A DNA stretch of 64,000 nucleotides, from the NCBI GenBank assembly GCA_964187785.1, contig OZ076409.1:5706001-5770000 (forward strand), written 5' to 3'. The translations under genes were made by a program, and so were the position numbers. Each line of letters starts with the position of its first letter. Within the stretch, counting starts at the first letter, position 1. The notes beneath the pieces were generated by a model. The model had not been told where the DNA came from and searched no databases. It was given only the letters and a program-made list of their open reading frames with translations. Of the stretch, positions 3,056 through 64,000 are shown piece after piece. The DNA comes from Amphiscolops sp. MND2022 (Eukaryota).

Positions 3056-3057
3056 AT

Positions 3058-4156: not shown

Positions 4157-4171
4157 ATCTTACACCATATA

Positions 4172-7100: not shown

Positions 7101-10100
7101 TCTTTACTGATCTTCATACAGATCCCCATATCGACACAACTCTCGTCCTAGATACAGATCACGCTCCTATTCCAGAGACAACAAATTCACAAAATATACA
7201 AATTCATACAGACCACCTTCAAGACCAAGAGACTCTAGATTTTCTAGATCTCGCTCACACTCCAATTCCAGAAACAAAATTAATATGATACAACAACAAG
7301 ACCAATCTGACCCTATAAAATTTGAAGTACATATGTATCACCCAACAGCAATGGCAAATGCTGTCACACCTACAAGTTGGTTTTATACATTATATGTACA
7401 TACACCATCAAGTATAGTACAAAGAGACAACCCATCTAGATTGGAAATTGCATTCCTTCTAGATAGCGGTGCTTCTATTTCTGTATTAAATTACCCAACA
7501 TACATAACATAATTCGACCAACTCGAAATTCCAAAACATTTAGCGTTGCAAACCAAACTGAAATTCCTATTTTACATTATGCAAATACAATTTTGAACAC
7601 CACTATTGACGAAAATTCTCGTTTCTTTTCAGTACCTTTTGCAGTAGCTGATATCAAATACAACATCCTTGGTACACCATTCTTTGAAGATAATGTACAA
7701 AACATAAACATACAAGACTTTACACTCGAATTCAAATATCAATCAAAAACACACCCAAATTATGCAAAGTTCACAACACTCCTATCTAAAGACTACCCAT
7801 ATTTCTCTTACGTTTATAGAATTAATTCAAAGACTCAAATACGCCTAAAACCCAAGTCTCCAAAGTTTGCTTATTTTCCAATTAAAAATTATCATAACCT
7901 CCATTTTACAACTACTCCACAAAACCACTTCTTCCCTTCAGTACCTCATACCTATTTTGCTACTAAATTTCGTACAAATTTCAATTTTATTGAAGTATTC
8001 ACTGATGACAAACCAGATATCTGTGCAACTATCATCCAAAACACCTCAAAACATGTTGCAACACTGCCTACAGGACAAATTGGATACATTGAAGTTCCAA
8101 TTACTAGTGAAAAAGCCAAACTCTTCCAAGTTAATGATATTAACACTTTAATACAAAATGTTACTCATACCTACCATCCTGAAATCACTGAACCAGTTCC
8201 ACAAACTAATTATATCGTACAATACGATGATCTTTCAACCCCTCCTCCTCAATTCTCTTTACATCAAATTTATATGACAAACGATGACATCCCAAATCAA
8301 ACTTCTCTTTTATATAACGTTCAACCTACTTCTCATACTTCCGAAAAACGCAATTTTCCTTCTCTACCATACACTTCTGAAAATCTGAAATTTATTAAAA
8401 AATTTAACTTCCAATTTTCTGATCTTACAGACCCCGAATACATTACTCTTTGCAATATGTTACTCAAGTATAAAACATGTTATGCAACTCATAAAAACGA
8501 TGTTGGAAAAATTTCAACACCCTTCTGTATTCGACTTAAACCTAACGCTCAACCTTTGACACAACGTCCTTCTAAAGTCCCTATTCACTACCGAGACAAA
8601 CTTGATGTACTTCTCAAAGAACTCGAAAAATAGAACATTATCAAACAAATTGGTTCCTCTCCACAAGACAAACCCGTTTATGGCACAACTTTTTTAAACC
8701 CTCTCAAAATATTCCCCAAGGGAGATACTATAAAATATGTATCAGACGCTCGACATCTTAACTCCAATACAAAACAATCTGATGAATCTTGGCCTATTGA
8801 ACCACTCGCTCCCCAATTAGCACGCGCAAACAAAAAGTACAAATCTGCTATTGATCTTATGTATGCCTATGCACATACACCTCTTGATGAAGACACTATT
8901 AAACTTACCAGTTTCTCCTCAGGAGATAAACTTTTCGCTTTCATACGAGGCTTTTATGGTCTCAAAGGACTCCCAAACTTCTTTACAAAACAAATGTCTA
9001 CCTTCTTTAAAACTCTTATAGAACAAGGTTTTGCTCTTGTCTACATTGACGATATATTACTTTTATCTGACTCTAAAGAACACATGTTCCAACTCATGGA
9101 ACAACTACACATAATTAGTACAAAAAACAATCTTAAACTAGCCCCTGAAAATCCTTTTTCATGCTTCTTAAAGTCAAATTTCTTGGACATGAAATTGGTT
9201 ACAATACAATTAAACCAATCCATTCGAAAATTGCAGCTATTCATAAAATACCTTCTCCAACTGGAAAAGTTGCCGTAATGAGTTTCATTGGTGCACTCAA
9301 TTTTTACACCAAATTTATTGAAAAACTACATATTAACCTCAAACCATTTTACGATCTTTTACATGAGAACACTCCTTGGAAATGGACAGACGAACACGAA
9401 AGTCTCTTCCAAAAACTTAAAATGTCTCTCACTTCTGAAACAGAACTTACAATACCAAATACAAAACATCCATTTTTCATTACAGTTGACGCTTCCCTTA
9501 TTGGATTAGGCGCTGTCTTATTCCAATTAAATGAACAAAACAAAATGAAAGTTATATCGTACAACTCTCGTATACTTAACCCACAAGAACAAAAACTCTC
9601 CACACTTGATAGAGAACTTCTCGGTATAGTACATGCTCTCCAAATTTATGAATTTCTTTTCATTGGTTCTCCCCATCCAATACACATTTTTACTGATCAC
9701 AAACCTTTATTACATTGTTTTTCAAAGAAAGGTAACCTTAGTCCTCGTTTCTATAGAGCTCAAATGCAATTACCAAAATTTTTGAAACTTAAAATAATTC
9801 ACACTCCTGGAAAAAATCTCTCTATTGCCGATATGTTAAGTCGCTCTTTTACAAAAGCTGAATTACAACTCAACCAATTAAAACATAAACAACTTCCACC
9901 TCAAATTGATTTTGCACTTCTACAAAATAACACTCTTAAACCTGTACATTACTTAATTAAACATGAAGAAATCTTACCTCATCAAAAACATGACTCTCAC
10001 CCAATTCTCGCTGAATATGGTACAGACCAATTCTCTATTCGTATCAATGATAAAGGAAATGACATTGTTGTCAAACCGTTACAACCTTTCTCATTCAAAT

Positions 10101-12255
10101 CTTTAACTCCTTTCCAAACCAAGTTCATCATATATATACCAGATTTCCAAAATCTGACTCTTCTTTCCTACATGACACAACATTACAAACAGAAAACTAT
10201 TCTACTGTTAACCAATTAACCCCAAAAACCTCACAAAAATCTGTTTCTGCAAAAAATGTACAACCAAATCTACCATCTCTCACACATTGTCCACAGATTA
10301 TACCTTTCTATTATACATCATTTTTTAAGTACAAAAACTATTTTCAAGGTTTTTTCCTCCCCGATGACTATTCAATAGACATAACAACACTTCAACAACA
10401 ACAATGCCAAGGCCCGGTTCTTAGAACTGTTTATTCTTGGATCATAAAAAATGAAAAACCTGAATCTCTAACACCACTTATCATGGCACTCCTTTTCTAC
10501 ATGCTTATTACAAAAGATTTTCAGAACTTTTTATAGATGACTACACAAATCTTATTAGCCTTTACACTAAACACCCTACTACTCTAAACCAATCTTTTAC
10601 TCCAGATTTTGTACGCGCTACTATTCGAATATGTCTTCCATTTCGACTCTTCAAAACTGTTTTTAACAAACTTCATGAACACTCACATACAGGCATCAAA
10701 ATCACATATAACACATTCGCACAATATTACCACATTCCATTTGTTGAAAAATGGCTTTCCATTTTTATACATGACTGTATTGAATGTCAACGCAATAAAC
10801 ACTTCAACATGAAAATTCAAACTGCTCCTACACAATCCTTTTCTGAACATGCTCCATCCTTCAAATACCGCATTTCAATGGACACTAAAGGACCTATTAA
10901 TCCTCCTTCCCACAACAAATCATATATAAATGTAATAAGTGACGCTTTCAGTCACTTTGTTGTTACAGTACCCATCAAATCAAACAACGCAAAGACTGCT
11001 ATCAAAACTTATCTCACCATTGGATTATTAAATTTGGACAACCTATATATCTTGTCACTGATCGTGGATCAGAATATGTTAATAAAGAAATGGCACACCT
11101 TCGTACACTTATGGGAATTCGTCACTCTTTAAGAACAGCTTACTCTCCTTGGACAAATGGCCTTGTCGAAGTACAAAACAGAAATCTTGGTACACATCTA
11201 CGAATGTTCTTACATGACACACCTAAAGATTGGGCATTCCAAGTCCATATGTACGCTTATGCACATAATTCACAACCACTTTCAGAACTCAGTATTTCTC
11301 CTCATGAAATTGTTTTTCACACCAGACCCAGAATCCCCCTTATACGTTTGATTTAAATCTCAACCGAAACACCTCTAAAACATGTATTTCACGCTATTGC
11401 TCTCAACTTCCAGAACACTCCCACTATGATAAATCCGATCTTAACCCATTTTTTAATAAAACACTTTCAAAACCCATTCCACATTGGTTTCTCGCCGTAG
11501 AAACTGCTATATTACAAATTTATTCCACAGTATACGAAAACACTTTACGAAAAATCAATTCACACGCATACATTACGAAAACATACCACGAAGGTAAACC
11601 CCTTCCTATTGGCACCTTTGTTTTAAAACGCAAATTCACACACGTATATTTTTCTGACAAACTAAAACCCCTTCGGATTGGACTATACAAAATTATTGAC
11701 AGACTATCAGATGTTACATATGAACAACTTGCACAAGATGGCTCTACAATACATGTTCATAAAAATCATTTAATTCCATATTATCCAAAAGAACCACTCT
11801 TATATCCACCTTTGCGTAGTTTCATGCGCTTTTCAGACTCAACTCAATTCCAAATTCCACAACCTACCAAATATGCAAACAGTGATTCTTCCCCTTTCAA
11901 CTCAGACGAATCCTCATCAGACGAAGATTCTCAAACATTCATGACACCAACCACAACGGATAATTCTTCTCAAACATTTGTGACACCATCATCATTTAGA
12001 ACGTCCAATCAAAATACACCATCTACAACATCCAATGACAAGTCTTTAACTTCCTCAACCAATGACAACTCCTTATATAAACACATAATTAACACCCCTC
12101 ACACTAATATCTCTAGTGACAGATCAAGACACCCTTCTAATAACCAAACAACTTCACTTCCTCCTCTAATTGACAGAACTACTAAAACTACTTATAAACT
12201 ACAACAACAACCCAAATTAGATTACAGACTTTTTATTACACCCTCAAAACTGTAA
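4172..12255 (+). pseudogene. Element A gag-pol polyprotein (capsid, CCHC, RS-rich segment, protease, RT, RNase H, integrase); many stops and frameshifts
   Basis: Gag core LTGTALSWY; knuckle CSYCHRTNHSISAC; LLDSGAS; YIDD; VDAS, RELL and TDHKPL (RNase H); ISMDTKGP, TDRGSEY and NGLVE (integrase). Confidence 0.92.
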
Positions 12256-12304
12256 CCTCATTATTCTATCCGCTGGCTCACTCAAAACTAGTCACTACAG
12301 CTGA

Positions 12305-13582
12305 ATGCAAGATAACCAATAACAAGTTATCTCAAGATAACCTGTTGAAAACATTTCAAGAATCCTGGATTCTTCCTCTGATATATCTCCATCAGCTCCA
12401 AGTATTCCTTCTACTTCTGAATCTTCAGTATCAAACACTACAAACTCTAGTAATGTAACTCCTACTACTCCTTCTAAAAGACCAAGATCATACGTTTCTG
12501 AAACAACATCTTCATCACTCCTTCATAGACCACCTATAACTGAAATACCTATAAACACTCGTACTCAACAAATTCCTATTAACACTCCTATAGTACACAT
12601 ACCAAACCCTGAAAGTCTTGAATAATACGTAAATTACAAACATCCTACAGCTATCAAAACTGTTAGACTACAACCTCAGCTCAATCTTGTACAAATCCCT
12701 GATACTGAATATACAACATTACCTTCACTGAAATTACCATCAGAACTTAGTACTACTCCTTCAAAACTTTATCCACCATTAAAACCTCTTCGGAAACCTT
12801 CTACATCACTCTCAAATCTCTTAGACAATATATCAGAATACACTCCATCACAAGATACAACAGGCTCACTTTTTGTACCACACCATAGATATAATCTTCG
12901 AGATCTTCCTTCAAGAAGACTTAGTACAGACACTTCTACACTTAATCTATCTGCTCTTTCTAGCACTTCTACTTTAAGACTCCTACGACAACACGCACAA
13001 CCGTTGTCTTCTGAAAAAAATTCTTCTGACTTTATACCTTCTCCATATTTTACATCTGGTTTTGACACCGCTTCTCTACTTTCCTCAGACGCTCAGACTG
13101 CATTCCCTTCCGGAAATCTATTCTCAGAAGTTATAATACCTACTCCTGTCCCCGCACATATTAGAACACCTGAATATTATACTGCAGATCAATTTAGACC
13201 TCCAACTCCAAATTTTGCTGACTACCCACTTAGAGTCGATGGTATAACCATCTACGACCCACAGCACGATCCTAGATTTCCTATCCTTGCAGAACGTTTC
13301 ATTACAAATAAAGATCGCTTATCTCACAAAAGAAAGGAAACACAACTAAAACGCCTTCAGACACCGAATTTAGAACTCAAATTTGAAGTAAAAGTCAATT
13401 TCCAAGGTTTATATCCACATCCAATATTTCACGTCTCAAAGATAGAACATAAAACTTCTCCTGCTCCTTTTGAAGTGATACACATTGATTTTGAACGAGA
13501 CCTCAATATACCTACTATCACATATGGCAAAATCATATTCTGTAACCCATACTCAGGTCTTAAATATACTACCACTTTTTGA
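12305..13582 (+). pseudogene. Element A ORF-X: Ser/Thr/Pro-rich N-terminus plus conserved C-terminal domain; three in-frame TAA
   Basis: ATG 12305 is in frame with ORF 13004-13582. Shares ILDSSS, PSAP, VHIP.P, LYP.L, YNLR, RLLRQHAQP, RPPTPN, LKFEV and NPYSGL.Y with 56997-58469. Confidence 0.75.
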
Positions 13583-16229
13583 ACTCCTTACAACTTCATA
13601 CATAACAATTCTCATACTCTATTCACACTTATTTAACTTTACCTTTTCAATACCCATAACACCCTCTGACACAGAAAACTAGCTTCCATCGGATGATCCA
13701 AATATTACAAATCTTATGGTTTCTCATTATGACTGGGCAAAACAACACAATTTGAGACAGTTTAATTTACTTAATGTAAAACAATGCCTGAAGCTCCTTC
13801 TGACATTAAACATGCAAGTGTTAAAGCCCGTGTATATGTTCGCGCAAAAGCTAAACGCATCAAAGCTTTTAAATGTGTTGCTTATGCAAAGAAAGAAAGG
13901 AAAGTATGCTTTCAAGGCTCCGTAAAATACCGCCGTGTTGATAGAACTGTATGGAATCATAATACATTACCGCTTCCTGTTACTCTTGATCCATTAGAAT
14001 GTAAAAACATTATCAGACATTTAAATGGTACAAATGATAAAATATTGAACAACCTCCATTACAATAAAACTTTCACACTCTTAGAGGACCATTATTTTCA
14101 AGAACGATTGGAACAATATCAAACTCCTTTCACCGTATACCAATTGAACAAAATGTACACAGGTACATTTACATTTATGCCTGCCGATAAAAACTGGATA
14201 TATGACCCTACTCAAAACCCTTATCATAACTGCCCTGCTCATCACCAATTCGAAGTTAACCTAGTTAGTTGGCGATTAGAAATTTCCGAAGTAGAACTTA
14301 CTTATGATGACACATCTAATGACATGATAATAGATGGACATACATTACCCTGCTACTTTGCAGATGGTTTTTGTAAACCCACAACGAAAACCCCTTTTAC
14401 TCTTGTTTGGTTCGATGATGACTGTTGCCTACTTTTCACATTACAAGATTTCATTGGTCGTATGACTAAAATTGAAGATAGATATTGGATTGAAACAGAC
14501 TCTTTTGTACATTCTCCACACTCAATAAAACCGAAAACAACTTCTGGTATCAAAGGTACAGAACATCCCTATGTTTATGCTCCTCATACACAACATCCAA
14601 ATAACCCAAGTCTTTCAAGTTTTCAAGTTTTTCCTACAGCACAAACCTTTTGTGGTAAACCAGACACTCTTTATTCTACACGATACTCAGACCTTTTTGT
14701 TACATACACCGATGGTTTCAATATGCATACAGGACAACCCAATCCTCATTCTATGATTGATGAATATATTTCTGGTAAAATAGTATTGGACACTTCAAAT
14801 AACAAATTTATATTCCCTGCATTAAATGTTTCAAACAATTTTGCTACCATTGACTATGATGCACAAATAAACACGAAAATAGATTACACTATTAACCATG
14901 TTTTTAGATCAATGACAGTACAAGAACTAAATACTGTACATACCATATGTGAATTAGAACGAAATCAACTTCTTACAATACTCGCAATGTCAGTACAAAA
15001 TCCTCAACTTGCTGGTTTTCTTTTACCCGGTAATCGAAGTAATTTCTTATACGTTGAAGGCTCAACCGCCTGGCTTAATGACTGTCCTCATTTTTTATCC
15101 CCTTTATATAAAGCTGATAGATGCTTTGACCGTATACCTATACACTTTAAAGATGCATTAATGTACGTTGATCCTATTACAAGACAAATCTATGACTATG
15201 CTACTCCATTTACATGTGATAATACTCCACGAAATCTTATTGAACTAGATCCTGATTCTGATGATCAAGACTTTTACATTCTTGGACCTGAACCTATTAA
15301 ACGCAAACCTCCACTAATGTTTACACCTTCACAAATTAAAACTACAATACGTCCTAACACTTTTACAGCTCAAGATGCTGGTATATATTCTAATGCAGAA
15401 CTTGACCAATTTTGGAACCGTATTTTATTTTCCAAACATTCTGATTCTACACTTCAATTACTAGGCAAAGCTCTTAGCTATTCTTTCACTTCATCTAATA
15501 CTCCTAAGTATGATGCAGATTCCCCTCAAGATTCTGGTAATCCTTATAATACATTACGTATAAGACTACATGACAAACTCTTGAATTCATCTCCTCTTTT
15601 TACGCCTACATGGTTTTCAGATGCTTTTATTGCACTTTTTGGATACCCTTGTTATATTCTCACACAATGTGGTATAAATTTTTCTACATTTCTTTTTGTA
15701 CAAGCTACTCTTACACTCATTGTCAAACTTTACAAAACAATATCTATTAAAGATAATCTCAAAAATAATATTACCTTACTTAGTTCTATAGCACATGGTT
15801 TTTTAATGTTCTTACAGCACGAATGGTCAATGACCTCAATGAGACTCAAAACAAAAAACCCAAAAGTACACTTTTAAAATCCAAATCCTTAGATAATTTT
15901 ATTGACACTTCAACAAATTTAATTAATCATTCTACCGATGTTACTTCCCCCCACTTTTCTATACTGAACGTCCTAACAAAATTCAATTTCCTAAATTTAA
16001 CTTGTTTCCGAAACGACACATCAATTCTCACCAAAAAACAGCTCCTTTTCCTTTCTCTCCTGTTCAACATCCTCCACTTCCCAATTATACTCATAAAAAA
16101 TTTCATCTGAATGACAATCTAACTACTCAACATGACACTTTAATTAACAATCCTGTCACCTCCAATACGGATACACCAATTAAAATATATTCACGGATAA
16201 ACTATCCTTTTCCTCCTCCATCTTCTTGA
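13524..16229 (+). pseudogene. env: Element A envelope glycoprotein, gB/chuvirus-G-like; disrupted
   Basis: ATG 13524 opens a hydrophobic leader in frame with MVSHYD (stop at 13680). Main ORF 13784-15877 is Cys-rich with a C-terminal TM segment and aligns with 54397-56967. Confidence 0.85.
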
Positions 16230-16500
16230 ACACTCTCTCAGTTTTTTGCAAACTCTCTTCCAGCACACTTGCCTACTACTTCTTTTCACAATTGCTACTC
16301 CTCCACCACTTGAAACCCTTGCAGAAGTTCATCTTCCTCAATCCAATAACACCTCTCTAATCATAACAATCTTCAAACCCTCTTCACCTAAAGTTGATAA
16401 ATCCACTCGTTAGTGTCATTTAAAGTACTTTCACTTCAAAGTGATACGGCCTTTTGGAATAGATAACACTGTGACTGTTGATGTTTTTCTTTTAAACACA

Positions 16501-17829
16501 ATGACACAAGCAGAAATTGATCTACAAACACAGCTTGAACAAGCAACCCCAACAGATCTTATAACTAGACCTCTTTCAAATTATTCTCCTGTTCTCTATA
16601 TCGAGACTTCTGAACAAACACCTCCAATTTTTCTTGAACAAATGGAACACACAAAAATTGAACACGAAAAATCAAAACCTACTCCTTCACAAGATGATGA
16701 TGATCATACACAAACAACACCACCTCCTCCAAAAAAGCGATATGAAATTATGAAAGATCCAATCTTTCTTTCTTCACCAATATACCCTCCTTCAAAACCT
16801 TCAAAAATTTCACTTTGCACGAATTGTGATGATCATTTGATCCCACTTTTTTCTAATGGCGATTTTGTCTTTAAAGCACAACTAATTTTTTTATATATGC
16901 ACCCTACTGATTATTCATTTCACTTATATGACACAAATCAAGATTTCTTCACATCAATTGCCTCCACAATAATGGGTCCATACCAATATTGGCTCGATAA
17001 TGGAGTCAAAATTTTCTCTCTACAATTCAATTTTCTCCGTCCTTCTATCTACGATCTCAAAACAGATGAATCTGATCCATCTTTCCTTTCTATTTCACAA
17101 AAAGCTACTCATCATCAAACATATACTAAATTTCTACAATACACCAAACCACAAAATCACATTTTCGTCAATTACAAATATACATCACCGTTCACAATGA
17201 CAAATATGTACACTCTTGACCACTCTTGTATAACAGGCTATCTTCGAAACTAAGACCCTATAAAACAATACTTCTGTTTGCTTCCGTACAATAATACTTC
17301 ACGTTCACTTATTGTACCTCAAGAATACATCATACATTACCATGACTTTTTGTTGCCTTGCAAAATTCCTACACAAATTGTCAAACCTCTCACTGTCTTT
17401 AAACACCTAGTATCTTCTCCACTTGACGATAAAGATAGAACTTACTATACAGCACTCTACAAGCAAACGTATTTCTACAATGAACTTCTCTTCATTTCTG
17501 CAAAGACTATTCCTTTTATGGTACAAGCTGAACAAAAAACAGAACATAAATCACACTCTTCACCTATAAAAAACGCTCCTGACAAACTTTCCTCTGTACT
17601 GAATAACCGAACACTTCGCGACATGACAAATTTACTTGAACCCCATAAACGAAACTCCTCTGAAACACCTATCACAACACTCACACATATACTCCACTGC
17701 TATGACAGAACACATAAACTTCTTCAAACACTCGATTTAGACTCTCAACGCATCACTCAATCATCCCAAGCGATTCAATCTGCTTTGGAAACTATAACTA
17801 CTCTTTTTAACTCAACTAATTTTCATTAA
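16501..17829 (+). pseudogene. Element A ORF-Y, unknown accessory protein; one internal stop at 17251
   Basis: ORFs 16441-17253 and 17278-17829 share one frame and align with 52638-53945 (TSIAS, FSLQ.NFLRPS.YDL, KFLQY, KYTSPF, IVPQEY). Confidence 0.8.
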
Positions 17830-18245
17830 ACTCTTCTACAGGTAATACAAAATTCTTAATTTTCCTTCTCTGATACACTCTATGATACATCTTTGACACT
17901 ATATCAAAGGTATTTAGATTTTTACATACTTAATCAAAGTGATATCTTGCTTTCTGAATGAAATCTCAGGATTATCTTTAAAGTACATACTTCTTTCCTA
18001 CAGTACATGTCAAAAATAACTATTTATGTCTAAAAACTACGATACAAGACATACAAGACAGTATAGCACAAAACTAAAGATGATACATTTTCGCACCAAA
18101 TCTTGTTGTACACCTTTGACTTGTCATTGCCATTCTTCTTAAACTTCTTTTGTTTTAGAAACATCTATTCTTCTTCCTCCTCCATCCGCATTCTTTCGAA
18201 ACATTTCCACTTCTCTCTCGTCACTATCTTCAGAACCTCGTCAAC

Positions 18246-18696
18246 ATGACTCCCAATGCTGAAACAGAAGACATTATTACCATGACCTCAGATTTCTCAA
18301 AAGTGCACAGCCTCAAAGCCGCCATATTCCACACCATGGCATTTAAACTCTCGCTCGAAATAAACAAAAACAAAATAACTCCGAAATCTCTCATTGCTTT
18401 CTTAAAGGTCCTTTACAATGTCACACAAATAAAGAAAAAAAAATACATTTGATCAATACTCGCGCATTCACCTTGAAGGCCCAAAAATTGCCATTTGCGA
18501 AACGGCGTCCAATGTCGTTTTCGTCTTAAATTCCTCCTTTACTTCAAAGGACCAATACTTCCGTACCGCCCTACAAGAAGCCAATGACGCTTTCAATAAC
18601 ATGCTTAAAGATTTCGGGAATACTCAAAAATTAGAGCTATATGACCCGCTCCAACACCAAGCTCATCCAACTCAACAACATCCTCTCTTGGCATAA
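18246..18696 (+). pseudogene. Element A ORF-Z, ~150 aa; one frameshift in the A-run near 18440
   Basis: After the shift it reads FDQYSRIH, matching FDQYLNIH in 51639-52115; same position and similar size. Confidence 0.55.
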
Positions 18697-19416
18697 ATAA
18701 AACTACTTACATTTTCTCACTCTTCAAATACATCTCATCTTCACTCCTTCATCCTTCTTCGATGATGTCTCGAGATGTGGTTGCTGATCACTCCTCCAAA
18801 GAACTTTGCTGACACTTCTCACTGCTTCACGCACACCCTCCAGATGGTCAACATCATCCATCGCCACTGGGTTCTTCCATCTTGACAACCTGCTTCTGCA
18901 ACTGTCAACTGGTCTTCACAATCGTCACTGCAATGCTGACTTCTTTCAACTTGACTGGTCTTCTCACTTTGCTCCACTGAACTGGACTCAATTCACTTGT
19001 CACGAACTGAACTCGCCGCAATTCATTTGCCAATTTCAAACTCTTTATTAGCCGTAAATGTCAAACTGTATCTTAAAAACTTTATTGTAACTTTAACGTA
19101 TAATCTTATTTATTGTAAATTCATAATATAATCTTAATAACGCATTATCTTATCTAATCTTAATCTTGTATAATCGTACTATAATTACCCCCTCTAATGC
19201 TAAACCCTTACAAATTTTCATCTATAATTATCTTTGTAACCGCAAAATATATCTTCCCAAATTATATCCCCATTGTCATGTGCATAATACATCTATTTAA
19301 CAATTCTATAATCCACATCTTTTACAGAACACAAGTCCTACTTACAGCACAAGAAATTTTCGAAGATTTTTAGACGAAAATTTTTTTTTTACAAAACATG
19401 TTCTACACCTTTGAAC

Positions 19417-19555: not shown

Positions 19556-19572
19556 AAACCAAGTACTTCAAC

Positions 19573-54396: not shown

Positions 54397-56967
54397 CTAG
54401 GTGGGGTTAAATTTTATGAAGACTTTAGCAGGGCTTTCCGGTATAGTTATTATATTCGGCAATACTGGGTCATAGTCCTGAGAATTAATATCATTGATAG
54501 TAGTTGGGTGTGTCTTTTGCGGTGATTGAAATGTTGAATTCTTACTGGAATATTTAGGAGGTAAATAAGGGGAGTCATTATCAGAGTATTTTCTTTTTAC
54601 ATCTTTTTCCGGCAATAGGATATTATCATTTTCACTTGTTGTGATTTTATGTTTAGTATATATCCGTTTTCGTTTTCCTGTATTGTTTAAATCGGTAACC
54701 ATTTCCGATGTAACTATATTAAAAAATCCATGGGCTATTGAACTCAAAATGGAAATGTTACTTTGGAGATTATATTTTATACTAATTGTTCTATAAAATT
54801 TGAGTAAGAATGTTAAAATTTCTCTAATGAAAAGAAATGTTGAAAAATAAATTCCACATTGTGTTAAAACATAGCATGGATATCCAAAGAAATTAATGAA
54901 TGCTTGACTAAACCAGTCGGGGTTAAAAAGTGGTAAAAGATTTAACAAGTGGTCGTGTACTCCAATCCTTAAATGATTATAAGGATTATGTCCTGAGTAT
55001 GAATGTTTATCATTATGTACTGAAATAAAATCATAGCTCAATGATTTTCCGAGTAATTGAAGGGTTGTGTCTGAATGTTTAGCAAATAATACTCTGTTCC
55101 AGAATTGATCTAATTCTGCATTTGAGTATATACCAGCATCTTGGGCGGTGAATGTATTAGGAGTAATTGTTGTTTTAATTTGGGTAGGTTTAAACATTTG
55201 TGGAGCTTCTCGTTTAAGTGGTTCTGGTGTTAACACATAAAAATCTCCGTCATTTGAGTCTGGGTCCAATTCGATTATATTTTGTGGATTATTTCCACAT
55301 TCAATTGGTGTGGCATAGTTAAAAGTTTGTCTTGTTATAGGATCAACATACATTATTGTTTCTCTATAATGTATGGGAATTCTATCAAAGCATTTATCTG
55401 CCTTGTATAGTGGGGATATAAAATGAGGGCAATCATACAGCCATGCTGTAGATCCTTCAACGTAAAGAAAGTTACTACGATTTCCAGTTAAAAGAAAACC
55501 GGCTAATTGAGGGTTTTTAACTGACATAGCTAAGATTGTTAACAATTGAGTTCTTTCTAGTTCACATATAGTATGAAGAGTGTTTAGTTCTTGTACTGTC
55601 ATGGATTTGAATACATGATTTATTGTAAAATCATTTTTTGTATTTATGTGGGCATCATAATCTAAAGTGGCGAAATTGTTTGATATATTCAATGCGGGGA
55701 ATATATACTTTTTATTTGAGTTATCATATTTTATGTTTCCACTAATTGTTTGATCGATTATTGAGTGTGGTTTGGGTAATCCTGTGTTCATATCAAAACC
55801 ATCTAAATATGTAACAAAAATATCATCATATTGTGTTGAGAATAATGGCTCAGGTTTTCCACAAAAGGTTTGTGCAATTGGGTATATTTCAAATCGAGAA
55901 AGACTTGGATTGCTTATTTTCGATTGTGGTGTTTTCACATTGGGATATCGTGTCCCTTGTATTCCTTCGGTTTGGAGTTTTTGTGTGATATTTGAAGTTT
56001 CAATAAAGGTATCGGTTTCTATCCAATATCTATCTTTGATTCGTGTCATTCTACCAATAAATTCTTGAAGTTGAAATATGAGACAAAATTTTTCATCAAA
56101 CCATGTTAATGTATAAGGAGTTTTAGTTGTTGGTTTACAAAATCCATCTGAATGGTAGCATGGTAATATATGTCCATCATGTATTAATTGATTATTTTTG
56201 TCGTCATAGTCTATTGCAGTATTAACAATTCTAAGTTTCCAACTTTGTCGGGTAATTAAATGTTCTCGGTCTGATCGACATCTAGAGTATGTGTTTTGTG
56301 TAACATTAACTATCCAGTCGGGATAATTTTCATCAAATACGAAGGTTCCAATATGCCATGTATTTAATTTTGTTACTCTAAATGGTGTTTGGATTCGTTC
56401 AATTGTGTTTTGATAGTTACTATCGCCGAATAATGAGAAAGAGCTTTGTATATTGTAATTGTTTAATTCTTCGCTATCAGTCGCGTTTAAATATCTTATC
56501 ATATTTTTGCATTCAATAGGGTCCAATATTTTTGGAAGTTCTAATGTGTTTTGTCCCCATTGTAAACGATCATATCGTCTACTAGATGTAAATGTTTGTG
56601 AACACCAGACTTTTTCAGTCTTTATGTATGCTTCACATTTAAAGGCTTTTATTCTTTTGGCTTTTGCTCTAACATAAACTGTTGCTTGGGTTTTTGCGTG
56701 TTGTATATCTGAGGGTGCTTGTTTACATGGTTCAACATTTAATAAACTAAACTGTCTTAAATTATTTTGTTTTGCACAATCATAATGGGATACCATTAAG
56801 TTTAAAATGTTAGGATCTTGATCTGAGATATGGTTTTCAGGATTTGTTGTGTCAACTTTAGGAACATTTGAAGAATAAACTAAGGAGAGAACTGTATGAA
56901 TTATATATGTGTATTTGATAGCTTGTATTATACTCAGTAAATAAAAGGGAAAGATGATTTGGTTCAT
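54397..56967 (-). CDS. env: Element B envelope glycoprotein, 856 aa, gB/chuvirus-G-like (putative class III fusogen)
   Basis: Hydrophobic N-terminus, YDC..FSLLNV..C, CELER, C.DRIPI.Y..YVDPITR, GIYS..EL, C-terminal TM and cytoplasmic tail. Confidence 0.88.
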   Translation of the reverse strand: MNQIIFPFYLLSIIQAIKYTYIIHTVLSLVYSSNVPKVDTTNPENHISDQDPNILNLMVSHYDCAKQNNLRQFSLLNVEPCKQAPSDIQHAKTQATVYVRAKAKRIKAFKCEAYIKTEKVWCSQTFTSSRRYDRLQWGQNTLELPKILDPIECKNMIRYLNATDSEELNNYNIQSSFSLFGDSNYQNTIERIQTPFRVTKLNTWHIGTFVFDENYPDWIVNVTQNTYSRCRSDREHLITRQSWKLRIVNTAIDYDDKNNQLIHDGHILPCYHSDGFCKPTTKTPYTLTWFDEKFCLIFQLQEFIGRMTRIKDRYWIETDTFIETSNITQKLQTEGIQGTRYPNVKTPQSKISNPSLSRFEIYPIAQTFCGKPEPLFSTQYDDIFVTYLDGFDMNTGLPKPHSIIDQTISGNIKYDNSNKKYIFPALNISNNFATLDYDAHINTKNDFTINHVFKSMTVQELNTLHTICELERTQLLTILAMSVKNPQLAGFLLTGNRSNFLYVEGSTAWLYDCPHFISPLYKADKCFDRIPIHYRETIMYVDPITRQTFNYATPIECGNNPQNIIELDPDSNDGDFYVLTPEPLKREAPQMFKPTQIKTTITPNTFTAQDAGIYSNAELDQFWNRVLFAKHSDTTLQLLGKSLSYDFISVHNDKHSYSGHNPYNHLRIGVHDHLLNLLPLFNPDWFSQAFINFFGYPCYVLTQCGIYFSTFLFIREILTFLLKFYRTISIKYNLQSNISILSSIAHGFFNIVTSEMVTDLNNTGKRKRIYTKHKITTSENDNILLPEKDVKRKYSDNDSPYLPPKYSSKNSTFQSPQKTHPTTINDINSQDYDPVLPNIITIPESPAKVFIKFNPT

Positions 56968-56996: not shown

Positions 56997-58469
56997 TTAA
57001 AATATTGTTCTATAATTAAGTCCGGAGTAAGGATTAAAAAAGTTTATATGTCCCGTTCTAATTTCGGGTAGGTCTGCGTCACAAAGATAAGAAATGGAAG
57101 TGACTATGAATGGTGATGGAGTTGTTTTGTGTGCTACTCTTGTTGAAAGGGAAAACAGATGAGGTCCTAAAGAGTTGAAAGTTACTTCTACTTCAAATTT
57201 TAATGTGAGTTGTTGTTCTTGTAATCTTCTTAATTCTCTTTGTTTTCTTTGAGTTGAGAGTGAGCTGTTATTTATAAATCTTACAGGTAAGACTGTATAT
57301 CGAGGATCTTCGTGTAACGTACGGACAATTTTTGAGTTAACACGAATGGGATATTCGTCAGGGTTTGGTGTTGGAGGTCTTGAAAAATCTTCTAGAAAAT
57401 ATTCAAGTAATTGAATAGAAGAGTTTGATGCAATTGAACTGGGTGAATAAACTCGTGAGAAATTAGCTGCGGTATCTGATATAGTTGCTGGGTCTTCAGA
57501 TATAAGAGAAGCTGTTTCAAATCCTGATGTGATTTGAAATGGTAGTGACAAGGAAGATGGTATAGTAGGTTGAGATGAGGAAAGAGAAGAAGTGTCTAGT
57601 CTAGGTTGAGCGTGTTGTCTAAGTAGTCTGGAGTTTGTACTTGAACTTGTTAAAGATTGTAATTCTTGAGAGTTTCTCTGTTGTTGAGATCGAAGATTAT
57701 AACTATGTCTCGGTACTCTAGTACTAGCAGTGGAGTCAGAATCTTTATCTTTATTGTATAGATCTGTTAAAGAAGAAGTAGTTGAATTTACACGTTGCAA
57801 TTCGAGTTTAGGATATAATTGAGAAAATGTGAATGAACTTAGTTCACTCGGTGAAGGTGTTAGGTATTGTTGTAGTTTTTCTGTTGGTGTTTTTAATGAA
57901 GGTTCTGGTAAAAATGTTATTGGAGTGTTACTTGATGATGGTAAATTAGGGTTTTGTGTTAATGTAGGTAAAGGAGGTTTTCTTTTTGTTTTTGTTGCTG
58001 TAGGTATTTTATGTGGACAAGTATTTATGTATTGTAATACTGAACTTGGATCAGGAATATGAACAGAACGAGTAGTAGTAATTGGTGGAAGAGGAGGTCT
58101 ATTTAAGATATTTAAGGTATCTTGTGTATTTGGTGTTGTAAGTGATTCATCACTATAGGTAGAAGCTGGTGAATTTGTTTCTTCAAATGTTTGATTTCTT
58201 GAGATAGGTTGTGGTTGAGTTGGAGTTATAGGTGTATTGGTGGGTGTTGTTGGTGCTCTATCAGGAGTATATGGAGCAGATGGGCTAGGATTTGAGGATG
58301 AGGAATCCAGTATGTCTGTATCTGTATCTAAATATGCTGTATATTCAGGTAATCTTTGGAGTGAATGTGTTGAACTAGAAGATGAGTTATTTGTAGTTGA
58401 TGATGGTGAGTGAATATGTCTATCAATCTTGAAATTTTTGTTATGGTAGTTTGGTTTGATTATAAAAGT
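56997..58469 (-). CDS. Element B ORF-X; 490 open codons with no in-frame Met
   Basis: The frame of ORF 56997-57800 stays open upstream to a TAA at 58472-58470; homologous to 12305-13582. Confidence 0.75.
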   Translation of the reverse strand, partial: TFIIKPNYHNKNFKIDRHIHSPSSTTNNSSSSSTHSLQRLPEYTAYLDTDTDILDSSSSNPSPSAPYTPDRAPTTPTNTPITPTQPQPISRNQTFEETNSPASTYSDESLTTPNTQDTLNILNRPPLPPITTTRSVHIPDPSSVLQYINTCPHKIPTATKTKRKPPLPTLTQNPNLPSSSNTPITFLPEPSLKTPTEKLQQYLTPSPSELSSFTFSQLYPKLELQRVNSTTSSLTDLYNKDKDSDSTASTRVPRHSYNLRSQQQRNSQELQSLTSSSTNSRLLRQHAQPRLDTSSLSSSQPTIPSSLSLPFQITSGFETASLISEDPATISDTAANFSRVYSPSSIASNSSIQLLEYFLEDFSRPPTPNPDEYPIRVNSKIVRTLHEDPRYTVLPVRFINNSSLSTQRKQRELRRLQEQQLTLKFEVEVTFNSLGPHLFSLSTRVAHKTTPSPFIVTSISYLCDADLPEIRTGHINFFNPYSGLNYRTIF

Positions 58470-58589
58470 TTATTTTCGAATTTCTTCCGTGTATTATCAC
58501 TTGTGAAATACTTTTCATTCAATTCCACATTAATCTTCAAGCTTTCTCTTCCAAAAAATTTTTTATGTATTTTTCCTGTATTCCGTATT

Positions 58590-61500
58590 TCAGCAGGAAT
58601 TTTGAGAAAGTGAATTTATATCCTTTTCACCAAGAAAGAGTCGATAATCTTTTCTTGGTTGTGGGCGGAAATTGTATCTATTAGAGGAGTGTCTTCGAGG
58701 ATTAATAAAATTGTCATAGTCATGAATATCTGATTGGTTATCTAAGCTGATATTTTGAGGGATTTGTTCTTTTTGTTGGTACGGAAATGAAGAATAATGA
58801 CTGAATGGTTCTGATTGGAAGTCAATTGTGGATGGTATATCCGTTTTTTTTATTAGATGTTGTGGAATAAAATTGATCTTCGTCGCTAGATTGATTTTCA
58901 TCGGAATTAGTTGTTTGATTGTTTATATTTGAATGGCTATCATTGAATAACTGTGGATTATACTGTTGTAAGAAGGGGAAAATAGTTGGTTCCTTTGGGT
59001 AATAAGGAATTAAATGATTTCTATGTATGTGAGATGTATACCCATCTTGGCTAACAATTTCATATGTTATGTCGGAAATTTTATTAATAATTTTGAATGG
59101 TCCAATTCGAAGAGGTTTTAATTTATCTGAAAAATGAACATGGAGGAAATTTCTTTTTAGTACAAATGTACCAATATCCAAAGGTCTCGGATTGTGGTAT
59201 GTTTTGTTAAAATAAGCGTAGGAATTTATTTTTCTTTTTGTGTTTTCATATACTGTATGGTATCTTTGTATCATAGCAGTTTCAGTAGCTAAGATCCATT
59301 GTGGTATTGGTTTAGATAGAATTTTATGAAAGAAAGGGTTTAAGTTTGATTTATCATAGTGTGTATGAAGTGGTAATTCTTGACAATATTGAGAAGTACA
59401 ATTTCTATATGTATCTCTGTGAAGGTTAAGTTCAAAATTGATAGGAATTCTTGGTATAGTATGAAATACTATTTCATATGGAGATAAATTGATTTCAGAA
59501 AGTGGTTGTGAATTATGTGCATAAGCATACATGTGAACTTGAGTAGACCAGTTTTCCGGAGTATTATGTAAAAAAAGTCTAAGATGAGTTCCAAGATTTC
59601 TGTTTTGATTTTCAACTAGACCATTAGTCCATGGTGCATAAGGAGTTCTTGGTGAATGTCTAATTCCCATTGTGGTACAAAGATTTGCAAATTCTGAGTT
59701 GATATATTCTGTTCCACGGTCGGTAACTAAATATACAGGAGGTCCGAATTTTGTTATCCAATGATGTAGTAATGAGTTAACAGCATTTTGAGCATTGTTT
59801 TGTTTTATTGGTACTGTTACTACAAAGTGGCTAAAAGCGTCAACTATAACATGAATGTATGAATTTTGGTTTGATGGTGGATTTATAGGTCCTTTTGTAT
59901 CCATTGATATTCTGTAATTGAAGTATGAAGCGTTTTCTGAGAATGTTTGTACTGATGCAGTTTGTAGTTTTTGGTTAATATGTTTATTTTGTTGACATTC
60001 GATACAATCATGAATGAATATTGACATCCATTTATTCAAGTAGGGTATGAAGTAAAATTGGTTAAAAGCTTTGATGGATATTTTTATTCCTGAATGTCCA
60101 TGGGCGTGAAGTTTGTTGAAAGCTGCGTAAAAGAGTTTAAATGGTAAACATATTTTGTCTCTTTGATTTGGATTGGAATCGTGAAGATTAGGGTAGTCTA
60201 TGTGGATAATTTTTGTATCATGGTTAATGTATAATTGATTGAAAATTTTATATTATACTAATAAGAAAGAATTAGCTGCAATTGTTGGATCTATTTGTGA
60301 AGGTCTTTCATTATTAAGAATCCATTGATAAACTTTTTGTAAAACAGTGTCTTGGTTTTGTTGGGTTTTTATTGTTTCAATGGTTATTTGTGTATTTTCC
60401 GGTAGAAAAAAATAATTAAAATATTTTTTGTATTTGAAGAAGGACGGGTCAAAAAATGGAACTTGTTGTTTACAGTAATCAGATTTAGTTGGATATTGTA
60501 TAGCAAATGTATGTTCTTTTGTTTGGTATTGAACATTATTAGATTGAGTTGGTTCATCTTCATCACTGAGGATATCAGTATCATTAAGAATTGTCGATTG
60601 TTGTAAAAGAGATTTTGCTTGATTTTTTGTAGGCCTTTTATACTTTGATTCAAATGGAACAATAGATTGAAAAGAGAATGAGTCTAAAGGCTTTATGTGA
60701 ATATCTTCTCCTTTGTTATTAATGCGGATTGAGAATTGGTCGTCTCCATAATCAGCAAGGATAGGATGACAGTCATTCTTCTGGTTATATTTAATTTCTT
60801 CATGCTTTACTAAATAATGTACTGGTTTGATTTGATTGTCTTTCAAGATAGAGAATTCTATTTGAGGTGGTAATTGTTTGTGACGTAATTGATGTACTTG
60901 TAATTGTTCTTTTGTAAAGGTTCGTGAAAGCATATCTGCTACAGTTAAGTTTTTTCCAGGTGTATGAATGATTTTCAGTTTGGAGAATTTGGTTAGTTGC
61001 ATTTGTGCTCTATAGAATCTAGGACTAAGATTTCCTTTCTTTGCGAAACAATGTAGTAAAGGTTTGTGATCTGTAAAAAGGTATATAGGATAAGGGGATC
61101 CGATGATTAAAAATTCATATATTTGTAATGCGTAAACTATTGCGAGGAGTTCTCTGTCTAAAGTTGAAAGCTTTTGTTCTTGTGTGTTAAGAATTCTTGA
61201 GTTATAAGAGATTACTTTCATTTTGTTTTCTTCGTTCGTTTGGAATAAGACTGCGCCTAAACCAACTAACGAGGCATCTACTGTTATGAAAAATGGATTT
61301 GTTGTATTGGGTATTGTTAATTCAGTGTCTGCTGTCATTGCATTTTTAACATTTTGAAATATTGCTTCCAATTCAGGTGTCCATTGGAATTTAACGTCGT
61401 CATGCAATAGTGTATACAATGGTTTAAGATTTATATGAAGTTTTTCAATGAACTTTGAATAGAAATTAACACTGCCAAGAAATTGCATAACATCTTTCTT

Positions 61501-64000
61501 TTCTTTTGGTGATGGAATTCGTTTAATAGCTTCGATTTTGGATGGAATTGGTTTGATGGTATTGTTGCCAATTTCATGTCCAAGGAATTTGACTTTGAGT
61601 AACATATAAAATGATTTTTCGGGTGCAAGTTTAAGATTTTCTCTAGATGCTATTATATGTAATTCTTTTATAAGTTCAAACATTTCTTGTTTTTCATTAG
61701 CGAGTAGTAAAATATCATCGATATAAACTAATGCAGAACGTTTGTCTATAAGTGATCTGAAGAAAGTTGACATTTGTTTTGTGAAAAAGTTTGGAAGTCC
61801 TTTTAATCCATAGAATCCACGGATAAAGGCATATAGTTTGTCACCTGATGAGAATCCTGTAAGTTTAATTGTTTCTTCGTCTAATGGTGTATGAGCATAT
61901 GCATACATTAGATCAATGGTTGATTTGTATTTTTTATTAGCTCTTGCTAACTGAGGAGCCAAAGGTTCAATAGGCCAAGATTCAAGTTCTTGGTTGGTAT
62001 TTGAGTTTAAATGTCTTGCATCTAAAACTACCTTTATTGAATCTCCTTTTGGGATAATTATTAGAGGATTTAAAAATGTTGTTCCAATTGTATGTTTTTC
62101 ATCTGTCTTTGAACCAATTTGTTTGATTATATTGTATTTTTCGAGTTCTTGTAAAAGTTTATTTAGTCTATCTCTATAATGAATTGGTACTTTAGAAGGT
62201 CTTTGTGTATGAAGTTTACAGTTGTCTTTTATTCTAATTCGAAAGGGAGTAGAAATTTTTCCTACATCGTTTTTATGTTTGGCGTAGCAATGTTGATTAT
62301 TGATTAAAATATTACACAGGTTCACATATTCAGTGTCAGTTAAATCTGAGTATTCAAAGTTAAACTTTTTTATAAATTGTTGATTCTCTGTAGAATAGGG
62401 TAAAGGAGGAAAATCTTTTCGAATTTTATCTGAGGGTTGAAGGTTTCCAATAACAGAAGGAATAGGAAGTTGAAGTGTTTTATCCTTTATTTCTATCTTG
62501 TTTATTTCTAATAGAGACTGTGGTGTTACTCTAGTGCATAAGTTCATATCTGTATATGGATTTGGTTTAATCGGAGTTGTGATATCAGGATGATACGCAT
62601 GTATTACAGAGTGAATGAGTGAGTTTACATCATGAACTCTATAGTGAGAAGGAGTTGTTTGAGTAATAGGTATTTCTATGTATCCAATGATTCCTCGTGG
62701 TAATGTAGCTGGTTGAGATGTAAAGTTTTGAATTATTGTTGCACAAGAGTCTTTGCTTTTGTCATTGGTCATCATGTCTAGGAAATGAAAGATATTTTTG
62801 AATTTTTGTAAAAAATATGTATATGGATTTGTTGGATAAAATTTTGTATTGTCTTCGAGTTCAAAGTGTAAGTGTGAGTAGTTTTTTATTGGGAAATAAA
62901 TTGTTTTTCCTGACCTTGGTTTAAAGTGAATTGGTTCTTTGCATTTAATCGTGTAAATATAAGAAATATATGGGTAATCTTTTTCTGTAAATGTAGAGAA
63001 TGTAGTCTTTGTTGGAAGATTTGAGTGTTGTTCTTTGTAAGTCATAACGTTTTGTTGAAAATCTATATTTTGGATGTGGTTTTTGAAAAAAGGTGTTCCA
63101 AGGATATTGTATTTAATATTGGCTACGGCGAAATCAATATTGAAGGATCGCGTTTGATGATTTACTTCAGTGAAACAGGTTATTGAAATATAATGTATTA
63201 TTGGTACTTCAGTTTGATTTGCAACTGTAAGAGTTTTGGCTCTTTGGTTTTGAAGATTGGTTGGAACATTAATGTTTAATTGTTTGGAAATTACGTAGAA
63301 TGTTGGTAAATTTAATACGGATATAGATGCTCCATTATCTAAGAGGAATAAGATTTCTAATTTTGTGGGTAATATACTATCATTTGTTTCAGAAGCGTGA
63401 ACATATAGTGGATAAAACCAACTATAAGGAGTAATTGTATTTGCTATTTCAGATGTTTGACAGGTGTGGATTTCAAATTTTGTACTATCATTGTCTTTTG
63501 TGGTTTTAACATCTACTTGATTTATTCTGTTTTGTTGTCTGTTTCTTGAGGGTGTTCTAGATCGTGATCTAAAATCTCTAGGTCTTGATGGAGATCTATA
63601 TGGGTGATTATATCGTTTAAAGGAATTTTCTTGTGATTGAGAACGTGATCTATATCTTGAGCGAGAGTTATATCTGTAGTTTGAGTTATTTCTATATGGA
63701 GTTCTATATGGAGATCTAGATGGAGTTCTTCTTTGATAATAATTATCAAATCGAGATCTATATGGGCTTCGAGATCGATTGTAATATCGTTGTCGAGAAT
63801 TAGATCGATAGTTGTTTTGCAAAGTTTCTCTACTATTACTGCGGTATCTATCGTTATTTCTATATCTATCGTTAAAGTAATTTTGATTGTATTTGTTACG
63901 ATCATTGTCTGAGGAGTAAATATTTGTATTCTTGTTTTGATTTTCTTGTGGATTATTAGGTTTACTACGAAAATATTGTACAAAGGATTGTTGAGGAGTT
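58590..64000 (-). pseudogene. Element B gag C-terminus and pol (RS-rich segment, PR, RT, RNase H, IN); one stop at 60253 and a frameshift in the IN tail
   Basis: Frame is open from the window edge (SFVQYFRS) through LLDNGAS, YIDD and VDAS. The integrase ORF 58822-60039 is in the same frame after the stop. Confidence 0.93.

Follow-up and report, generated by a model that had tools for sequence, protein, structure and literature searches.

Can an env-bearing retroelement keep the signals for particle release in a gene of their own, apart from gag? This question is raised by a stretch of 64,000 nucleotides (nt) from Amphiscolops sp. MND2022 (contig OZ076409.1, positions 5,706,001 to 5,770,000), hereafter the window, whose source is a eukaryotic, animal genome of 1.07 Gb; all coordinates below are counted from the first letter of the window, with the strand given as + or -. 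Two giant long terminal repeat (LTR) element copies of the Ty3/gypsy type are found within these 64 kb, namely copy A (about 2900-19600, +), which is decayed and carries at its flanks a 145-nt direct repeat of 96.6% identity, and copy B (about 51000 to the window end, -), which is largely intact. The genes of the element are arranged in the order gag-pol, ORF-X, env, ORF-Y and then one small frame, and the open reading frame (ORF) between pol and env, here called ORF-X, is the subject of this work. [quoted passage not shown] The analysis identifies ORF-X as a genuine accessory gene under purifying selection, located between pol and env, and its best single reading, to which a probability of about 0.4 can be assigned from the sequences, is that of an ESCRT-recruiting egress adaptor.

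ORF-X as a Gene under Selection

In copy B, ORF-X is a stop-to-stop frame of 490 codons (56997..58469, -; stop codon at 56997-56999) that contains no Met codon. Its decayed counterpart in copy A spans 12341..13582 (+) and is interrupted by a stop at 12623-12625. The somewhat longer stretch 12305..13582 that had been taken as ORF-X is not an intact gene: besides the stop just mentioned, it holds two more in frame, at 12320-12322 and 12338-12340, and the ATG at 12305 opens 5 codons only. Between the two copies the ORF-X proteins are 42% identical (E 7e-57). Elsewhere in the genome the frame of family B is mostly intact, as 75 of 87 scored copies, drawn from 9827 candidates, lack an internal stop. 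In particular, the frame is open in 31 of the 32 copies that are 98-100% identical to B, and the family has therefore been active recently.

Candidate copies of families A, B and C amount to thousands each, and the families that can be told apart are A, B, C (with a 453-aa frame), C' (477 aa) and a D-like one, in addition to further families known from the C-terminal part only. The order pol, ORF-X, env is present in A, B, C, C' and D-like, that is, in at least five diverged families, and those bearing the motifs are only 37-45% identical to one another. In all five, ORF-X is under selection and immediately precedes env, so that the proposal of a separate protein next to env stands. Specifically, the ratio of nonsynonymous to synonymous substitution rates (dN/dS) between subfamilies is 0.10-0.24 over the whole of ORF-X; it amounts to 0.14-0.34 for the N-terminal arm and drops to 0.05-0.06 over the final 135 residues. 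The arm had been described as rich in Ser, Thr and Pro and poorly conserved; the composition is as described, and the poor conservation is contradicted both by these values and by about ten conserved islands within the arm.

A profile search of 1.84 billion cluster representatives returned 323 relatives of ORF-X at E<=1e-3 and 190 at E<=1e-10, and among the relatives looked up none bears a protein name (0 of 115, 0 of 69 and 0 of 18). Several of them stem from this same genome, P0114 being 100% identical to one of its loci. The best match of P0177 in this genome is only 52% identical, and P0177 therefore belongs to a lineage not found in this assembly. An origin of ORF-X by duplication of Gag, ORF-Y, Env or Pol was also considered and rejected, as no similarity to any of the four was detected (best BLASTP E value with Gag, 0.98). 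Nor can ORF-X be classed as a late-domain peptide derived from Gag, since it is a separate frame downstream of pol.

Conservation of the Late-Domain-Type Motifs

PSAP is encoded at 12389..12400 (+) in copy A and at 58272..58283 (-) in copy B. The second motif reads LYPPL in copy A (12767..12781, +) and LYPKL in copy B (57804..57818, -), where it lies within a conserved block S-x-[LI]-Y-P-x-L. The positions first given for these motifs, and for an LYPPL in the gag region of copy A (5148-5162, +), were all exact, and the claim that both copies of ORF-X keep the pair is confirmed by the A-B alignment, in which PSAP and LYPxL are in register.

Conservation across families was scored on 150 listed representatives of the 323 profile matches, aligned to the profile and comprising many decayed fragments; 113 near-identical matches from our own search were left out of the motif counts. 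YPxL is intact in 27 of the 40 representatives that cover it. Its columns score 0.88 (Y), 0.85 (P), 0.47 (x) and 0.85 (L), with an arm mean of 0.56, and under a Y-P-x-L mask it ranks 9th of the 306 windows of the arm, that is, in the top 3%. Moreover, the Tyr is preceded by L, I, V, M or F in 36/40 and a Ser is found three residues upstream in 35/40; Pro at Y+1 and the hydrophobic residue at -1 are thus each kept in 34-36/40. The motif is present in every family with a known N-terminal part, in the form of LYPPL (A), LYPKL or IYPKL (B), LYPRL (C and C') and IYPRL or LYPRL (D).

P[ST]AP is intact in 7 of 15 covering representatives, once as PTAP (P0234), and ranks 20th of the 306 windows. It is confined to the A and B lineages. 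In other words, conservation of the motifs across families was borne out for YPxL and failed for PSAP. An accessible, unstructured and conserved site, such as late domains occupy, is found broadly for YPxL and in the A and B lineages only for PSAP. Judged from these alignments, YPxL is conserved above chance and PSAP is lineage-specific. A third LYPPL is encoded in the integrase C-terminus of copy A (11800-11814, +); its counterpart in copy B is IFPFL, so that this occurrence is not conserved.

A trivial explanation would be that the motifs arose by chance in a low-complexity, proline-rich frame, or that the frame is not translated at all. Composition shuffles of the N-terminal 360 aa of the B protein yield P[ST]AP in 4.9% and YPxL in 12.7% of cases, and the looser YPx1-3L appears in 31% of shuffled arms, so that a single motif of this kind is not a rare event; furthermore, copy A in the window is broken. 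Such an explanation is nevertheless hardly credible, because both motifs occur together in just 0.6% of the shuffles, they stand at aligned positions in families that share only 37-45% of their residues, and dN/dS stays well under 1 in the arm as well as in the C-terminal domain.

The Unstructured Arm and the C-Terminal Domain

The first ~355 residues of ORF-X consist to 44% of Ser, Thr and Pro and have a grand average of hydropathy of -0.78. No hydrophobic segment was found in the protein, the maximum of the Kyte-Doolittle profile being 0.75 in a 19-residue window; with neither a signal peptide nor a transmembrane segment, ORF-X is expected to be cytosolic. In the AlphaFold2 (AF2) model of the full-length protein, residues 1-404 have a predicted local distance difference test score (pLDDT) below 50, and both motifs fall inside this region.

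The arm is followed by a C-terminal domain of ~126 aa, from SRPPTPN to the terminal Phe, which is encoded at 57000..57377 (-) in copy B and at 13202..13579 (+) in copy A. When the last 200 residues were modeled with AF2 from an alignment of 31 sequences, the domain of ~125 residues reached pLDDT values of 75-83, which, together with the low dN/dS of this part, substantiates the conserved C-terminal domain that had been postulated. Its topology is b-b-a-b-b-b-b-b, that is, two short strands, one helix and five strands.

No known family or fold could be matched to the domain. A Pfam search with 31 ORF-X members at E<=1 returned four families, each in only 1 of the 31 members and none shared, and a profile search of the PDB with the C-terminal domain gave 0 matches at E<=10. 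Fold searches with the model, which is of moderate confidence, reached best E values of 0.12 in BFVD and 0.31 in the PDB with Foldseek, and the best VIA-align Z score, 3.5, was obtained with generic beta-sandwiches (ApaG, appendage-ear). In addition, the ESM Atlas provided no usable lead for the domain (recognition 1530), and a scan of IMG/VR with the ORF-X alignment produced 155 pattern matches, of which 0 were confirmed, and hence no relative on a viral contig. The comparison with viral matrix proteins that had been suggested for the AF2 model gave no matrix match, as such proteins are not among the listed structure matches.

These results bear directly on the suggestion that ORF-X is homologous to a matrix protein of negative-strand RNA viruses and was taken up jointly with the fusion glycoprotein, the two forming an M-G (or M-F) module. 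The suggestion draws on the location of ORF-X directly upstream of a glycoprotein gene of the PF24664 (Monjiviricetes_fusion) family and on a layout in which N-terminal late-domain motifs precede a beta-rich globular domain. We consider it very unlikely. The sequence and profile searches match neither matrix families nor solved structures, the best structural neighbors are the sandwiches named above, viral contigs hold no relative, and the unstructured arm of ~360 aa is far longer than in matrix proteins; furthermore, according to the main-text passages of PMC13524379, env and pol of such elements have been co-diverging since early animals, with no recent capture. In short, no support for homology to viral matrix proteins was found in Pfam, PDB profiles, BFVD, Foldseek, VIA-align or IMG/VR, bearing in mind that a missing match does not exclude homology.

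An AUG-Free Frame with a Conserved CTG

The ORF-X frame contains no Met codon in families B and C, and ATG is scarce in the whole region. From the pol stop to the env ATG of copy B (1628 nt) there are 3 ATGs in any frame, compared with 16.6 in shuffles (P about 0.0002), and ORF-X itself has 1, where the density elsewhere in the element predicts 23.2. Among these triplets only ATG is depleted: observed and expected numbers of other triplets made of A, T and G are 19 and 14.8 for AGT, 19 and 17.3 for TAG, 21 and 25.0 for GAT, 11 and 12.3 for GTA, and 15 and 23.5 for TGA. Of 553 sliding windows, the only equally ATG-poor ones are those overlapping ORF-X or the 5' leader. Similar scarcity is seen in family C (0-1 vs about 9 ATGs), in the B subfamilies (1-2 vs about 13.5) and in decayed copy A (3 vs 12.2). 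Thus an interval of 1.36-1.51 kb holds 0-2 ATGs where 9-14 are expected from shuffles, or 23 from the element-wide density, as leaky scanning would demand; one out-of-frame ATG is kept in the ORF-X interval of family B. In each family the next ATG after ORF-X is the start of the Env signal peptide, 4-37 nt past the ORF-X stop. As for the 5' leader (~2.1 kb, upstream of the gag ATG; composite positions 6341-8480 of L032/L033), the one further region of the element that is poor in ATG, it has 4 ATGs per 1470 nt, the median being 23.

Similarity between families starts at a block 'ILD', whose Leu codon is a candidate non-AUG start. It is CTG in copy B (58308..58310, -), in the context ATA CTG GAT, and in copy A (12365..12367, +), in the context ATC CTG GAT; the general form AT[AC] CTG GAT has A at -3 and G at +4, that is, an optimal Kozak context. 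Among 44 copies, this codon is CTG in 43 (35 of family B, 7 of C and C', and copy A of the window), a count that leaves out six copies missed by the search pattern (L025, L041-L043, L045 and L053), and TTG in the D-like copy L040. CTG is otherwise rare, as it accounts for 58 of 1804 pooled Leu codons, 43 of the 58 being this very codon. The pooled B copies are not independent and the real sample is of three or four lineages; on this footing we estimate the chance of such CTG conservation at roughly 1e-3, given a CTG usage of 1-3% and synonymous sites near saturation between C and C' (dS 0.7-1.0). Upstream of the CTG, the frame of A and C extends by no more than 6-9 codons, and PSAP would lie ~ten residues from the N-terminus if this codon were used. 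A hairpin downstream of the CTG, looked for as well, was unsupported (z -1.0, -1.3 and +1.4). Family B has, in addition, a candidate upstream start of its own, an in-frame ATT (58425..58427, -) in the context AAG ATT GAT, again with A at -3 and G at +4.

Between the pol stop (58590-58592) and the opening of the ORF-X frame lies a spacer (58470..58592, -). The two frames are in register, and as seven further stops follow in the spacer, readthrough from pol into ORF-X is excluded. The spacer contains two ATGs (58530 and 58518), each opening a short upstream ORF. Its sequence (58470-58589, -) is purine-rich, including GGAAGAGAAAG, and a splice acceptor, an internal promoter or a polypurine tract might be located in it. 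With regard to splicing, donor-like GT[AG]AG sites in one full B copy are restricted to the LTR and the 5' leader (6 sites, the last at composite position 7681), and a single pyrimidine-rich, acceptor-like site lies 65 nt before the CTG. The one pairing checked, of the donor-like site at composite 6412 with this acceptor-like site, supplies no in-frame AUG, a result that is suggestive only.

The AUG-free frame with its conserved CUG is, at the level of sequence, a new and robust finding on the expression of ORF-X. We infer from it a non-AUG start and leaky scanning to env on one mRNA, the start codon actually used being presumptive.

Env, Gag and the Host ESCRT Genes

The env gene of copy B (54397..56967, -; 856 aa) begins with the ATG at 56967-56965, 32 nt after the ORF-X stop, the first one after the ATG-free stretch. 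Its product matches PF24664 at E 6.7e-25 and includes a signal peptide as well as a transmembrane segment around residues 704-722. The env frame of copy A (13775..15877, +) is decayed at the N-terminus and in the tail, and an intact Env of family A is represented by P0275. The cytoplasmic tail of Env in copy B contains PPKY (54550..54561, -), and a PPxY (PPKY or PPFY) occupies the same aligned column in 6 of the 7 sequences that reach it, from families A, B and C', the exception being a relative of 23% identity; shuffled Env tails contain PPxY by chance in 4.2%. The extreme C-terminus of Env also keeps a pattern (D/E)(S/T)P-x-K-(V/I)-(F/Y).

The short distance from the ORF-X stop to the env ATG, merely 4-37 nt, would suit a model in which ORF-X is the cytoplasmic leader of an Env precursor, made by readthrough, frameshift or splicing, in the manner of the leader peptides of foamy-virus Env. 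Such a model would also accommodate a decayed copy (P0188) in which ORF-X does read through into Env, and a distant Env of 23% identity (P0340, 1179 aa) that has an extension of ~290 aa ahead of its first membrane segment. It is highly improbable all the same. The offset between ORF-X and env varies by family (+32, +6 and +4 nt), so that no single conserved recoding mechanism can apply, the ORF-X stop is retained in intact copies, and Env has in each family its own ATG and N-terminal signal peptide. As to the P0340 extension, a relationship to ORF-X was rejected on an hhalign probability of 0.1%.

The LYPPL in the gag region of copy A is real and was correctly placed, but it is not conserved: Gag of B (738 aa) and of C contains no P[ST]AP, PPxY or YPx1-3L. 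The argument that ORF-X supplies late domains which Gag lacks was discarded as having no weight, as shuffled Gag lacks all three motif types in 43% of cases and their absence is expected by chance at that rate.

On the host side, exons for the V domain of ALIX match residues 580-674 of human ALIX at E 1e-13, and in the next exon QFYADLTEIL is aligned to human KFYNELTEIL, a human segment in which a Phe is central to the YPxL pocket. Exons for the UEV domain of TSG101 were found as well. Both host genes are split into exons, and a search for the complete host ALIX yielded only a piece of 180 aa.

A Proposed Role of ORF-X as an Egress Adaptor

How might these elements fit together? In the proposed mechanism, translation of ORF-X would start at a near-cognate codon, the candidate being the CUG that is conserved across families in an optimal Kozak context. 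Most scanning ribosomes would pass this codon and cross the AUG-free stretch of ~1.4 kb to the env AUG, and one subgenomic mRNA would thereby give little ORF-X and much Env. The arm of ORF-X would bind ALIX/Bro1 proteins via [LI]YPxL in all families, and TSG101 via the near-N-terminal PSAP in A and B. The C-terminal domain, in turn, would dock on a viral partner, either the Env tail, itself provided with PPxY, or Gag, and ORF-X would provide, in trans, the late-domain activity by which particles or Env-bearing vesicles are released. The idea of a budding adaptor appears plausible and is strengthened by the PPxY in the Env tail. A more far-reaching version, in which these elements would be 'complex' endogenous retroviruses outside Retroviridae, with the late domain moved from Gag to a CUG-initiated, AUG-free and Env-cotranslated ALIX/TSG101 adaptor gene, is doubtful in our view.

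A number of observations weigh against an egress adaptor as outlined. PSAP was not found in the abundant and intact families C and C', nor in the D-like copy L040, and its absence from intact C and C' means that it cannot be essential. The arm contains about ten other islands that are equally conserved (among them RPP, HIPxP, TAxKTxR, PxHxYNLR, LxRQHAQPxS, TSG and SRPPTP), so that the late-domain motifs do not stand out by conservation alone. YPxL, moreover, matches the YxxPhi sorting signal, which is generic. To work in trans, a late domain has to be connected with the particle that buds, and the C-terminal domain is without a known partner. The phylogenetic breadth is small, because many of the relatives come from this same genome. 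Finally, the route of expression may be less simple than proposed. The 40 codons between ATT and CTG in family B have a pN/pS of 0.15-0.30 (from 1-4 changes per class) and look coding, so that the CTG may not be the sole start and family B may start upstream of it or use two starts; splicing could possibly supply an upstream AUG to ORF-X.

Alternatively, ORF-X could be a real accessory protein with a task other than ESCRT-dependent budding, such as Env trafficking or turnover, antagonism of host defence, or RNA handling. YPxL would then be an endocytic, sorting or other docking signal and PSAP a lineage-specific extra. The islands of unassigned meaning, the dispensability of PSAP in C and C' and a C-terminal domain without recognisable fold or family all agree with such a task, as do the low expression implied by a non-AUG start, which suits a regulator, and the presence in the same elements of another conserved gene, ORF-Y. 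However, Pro at Y+1 with a hydrophobic residue at -1 is a pattern of the ALIX type that goes beyond bare YxxPhi, three types of late domain are clustered in the ORF-X/Env module, and YxxPhi signals normally reside in the tails of membrane proteins, whereas ORF-X has no membrane segment. We would give a task of this other kind somewhat less than an even chance of being the right answer, about the same as for the egress adaptor.

Whichever function applies, the gene is of interest for the biology of this class of elements. Env-bearing Ty3/gypsy elements are now viewed as ancient, possibly infectious retroviruses of invertebrates. To our knowledge, neither a late domain nor an accessory gene has been ascribed to any of them, and we know of no established route by which their particles exit. 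ORF-X, which is conserved, very abundant and recently active, provides a concrete and testable entry point to how these elements leave the cell and express their genes, with motifs of the ALIX and TSG101 types, a PPxY in the adjoining Env tail and a signature of non-AUG initiation with leaky scanning. If it were a late-domain gene acting in trans, it would be the first case of an LTR retroelement with a stand-alone gene for an ESCRT adaptor. Should the ESCRT reading fail, ORF-X would still define a protein family that lacks annotation and has a small beta-rich domain of a new kind.

Other Features of the Elements and of the Window

The assignment of the elements to the env-bearing class of Ty3/gypsy LTR elements (Metaviridae, errantivirus-like) is based on a gag with a CCHC knuckle, a pol encoding protease, reverse transcriptase (RT), RNase H and integrase in this order, the env gene, and direct repeats, which are observed around copy A and in a full copy of family B on contig C13. 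In copy B, pol (58590..63999, -) is truncated by the end of the window, and its frame changes within the integrase C-terminus; the Pfam domains RVT_1, RT_RNaseH, rve and Integrase_H2C2 are detected in it. The full C13 copy is about 22 kb long. Its terminal repeats (L031-L033) have an odd layout, with a repeat of 1.5 kb at the flanks, a 237-nt block duplicated just inside both ends and an 848-nt block on either side of the 3' repeat, and this arrangement could result from tandem or recombined copies.

Downstream of env, ORF-Y is found at 52638-53948 (-) in copy B, with 436 aa, and at 16414-17829 (+) in copy A, with one in-frame stop; the two are 48% identical over 175 aligned aa. ORF-Y has no Pfam match and no ESM Atlas lead. 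As it is conserved alongside ORF-X, each element has at least two accessory genes. The small frame between ORF-Y and the 3' end of the element (51639-52241, -; 200 aa) has no Pfam match either and is also open, with 197 aa, in the full C13 copy.

The sense strand of both copies is extremely poor in G (~8-14% per 500-nt bin, at 4000-20000 on the + strand and at 50000-64000 on the - strand), and the GC skew goes down to -0.58. Other retroelements are present as well. A BEL/Pao element (23229-29705, +) consists of one uninterrupted gag-pol frame of 2158 aa with the Pfam domains Peptidase_A17, RVT_1, Integrase_H2C2, DUF1759 and DUF5641, in a region that is much richer in G+C (0.47-0.48). Further pieces are an RT frame of 478 aa (315-1751, +; RVT_1 at 2e-39) and an integrase-core frame from a retroelement (35887-36819, +).

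Comparison with Known Systems

Late-domain peptides are well established in HIV-1 (human immunodeficiency virus type 1) Gag p6, in p9 of equine infectious anemia virus (EIAV) and in p2b of Rous sarcoma virus (RSV), and p6 combines PTAP and LYPxnL in a disordered segment. The nearest functional analogue of ORF-X is p6, as both display P(T/S)AP and LYPx(n)L in a disordered segment encoded by a reverse-transcribing, enveloped element. Whereas p6, p9 and p2b belong to the Gag polyprotein and work in cis, ORF-X is encoded separately and has an arm of ~360 aa and a folded domain of its own.

Stand-alone budding proteins are known from RNA viruses, where Ebola VP40, the rhabdovirus M protein and the arenavirus Z protein have a globular domain that is preceded, near the N-terminus, by late-domain motifs. 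In Mononegavirales, moreover, the matrix genes (VP40, rhabdovirus M) adjoin the glycoprotein gene. ORF-X resembles VP40 and rhabdovirus M in this layout and in its position directly upstream of a glycoprotein gene. It differs from VP40, M and Z in having a much longer arm and no apparent feature for membrane binding or oligomerisation, and no sequence or fold similarity to them was found.

Among retroelements, the closest parallel in gene order is offered by the metazoan env-bearing Ty3/gypsy 'errantiviruses', described in the main-text passages of Chary and Hayashi (eLife 2026, PMC13524379) as gag-pol-env elements that are ancient in animals. The elements of the window share with those of that text the order gag-pol-env and a fusion glycoprotein of viral type. 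The main-text passages of PMC13524379 describe no gene between pol and env, and the abstracts and passages retrieved by our literature search describe neither a late-domain-bearing accessory gene nor leaky scanning to env for LTR retrotransposons. The survey, as its main text has it, allowed <=1000 nt between pol and env (PMC13524379), and elements with an ORF-X of 1.5 kb were therefore probably skipped. In general, surveys that demand adjacent pol and env miss such 'complex' elements.

An accessory gene in front of env is also a feature of lentiviruses. Vpu, for example, promotes virion release. As outlined in the relevant passages of PMC5902531, the vpu-env mRNAs of HIV-1 and the rev-env mRNAs of simian immunodeficiency virus (SIV) are dicistronic, with an accessory gene before env and Env translated by leaky scanning. 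ORF-X takes the same position before env as vpu; Vpu, in contrast, is a small membrane protein with a weak AUG, whereas ORF-X is large, soluble and AUG-free. With respect to initiation, a better match is rice tungro bacilliform virus (RTBV), in which, according to the same passages, translation of ORF I begins at AUU, and ribosomes scan on through ~900 AUG-free nt to the next ORFs (PMC5902531). Both RTBV and the elements studied here are reverse-transcribing and have a non-AUG first ORF (putatively so in ORF-X) and a long AUG-free coding stretch. RTBV is a plant pararetrovirus that uses its pregenomic RNA and encodes unrelated proteins, while here an AUG-free stretch of ~1.4-1.6 kb ends at env. 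An ATG desert of this kind, ending at the env start, is the signature of leaky scanning through a long ORF, as in RTBV, and resembles the lentiviral vpu-env and rev-env arrangement. If this is correct, leaky-scanning polycistrony, known in plant pararetroviruses and lentiviruses, would have arisen in animal Ty3/gypsy elements as well.

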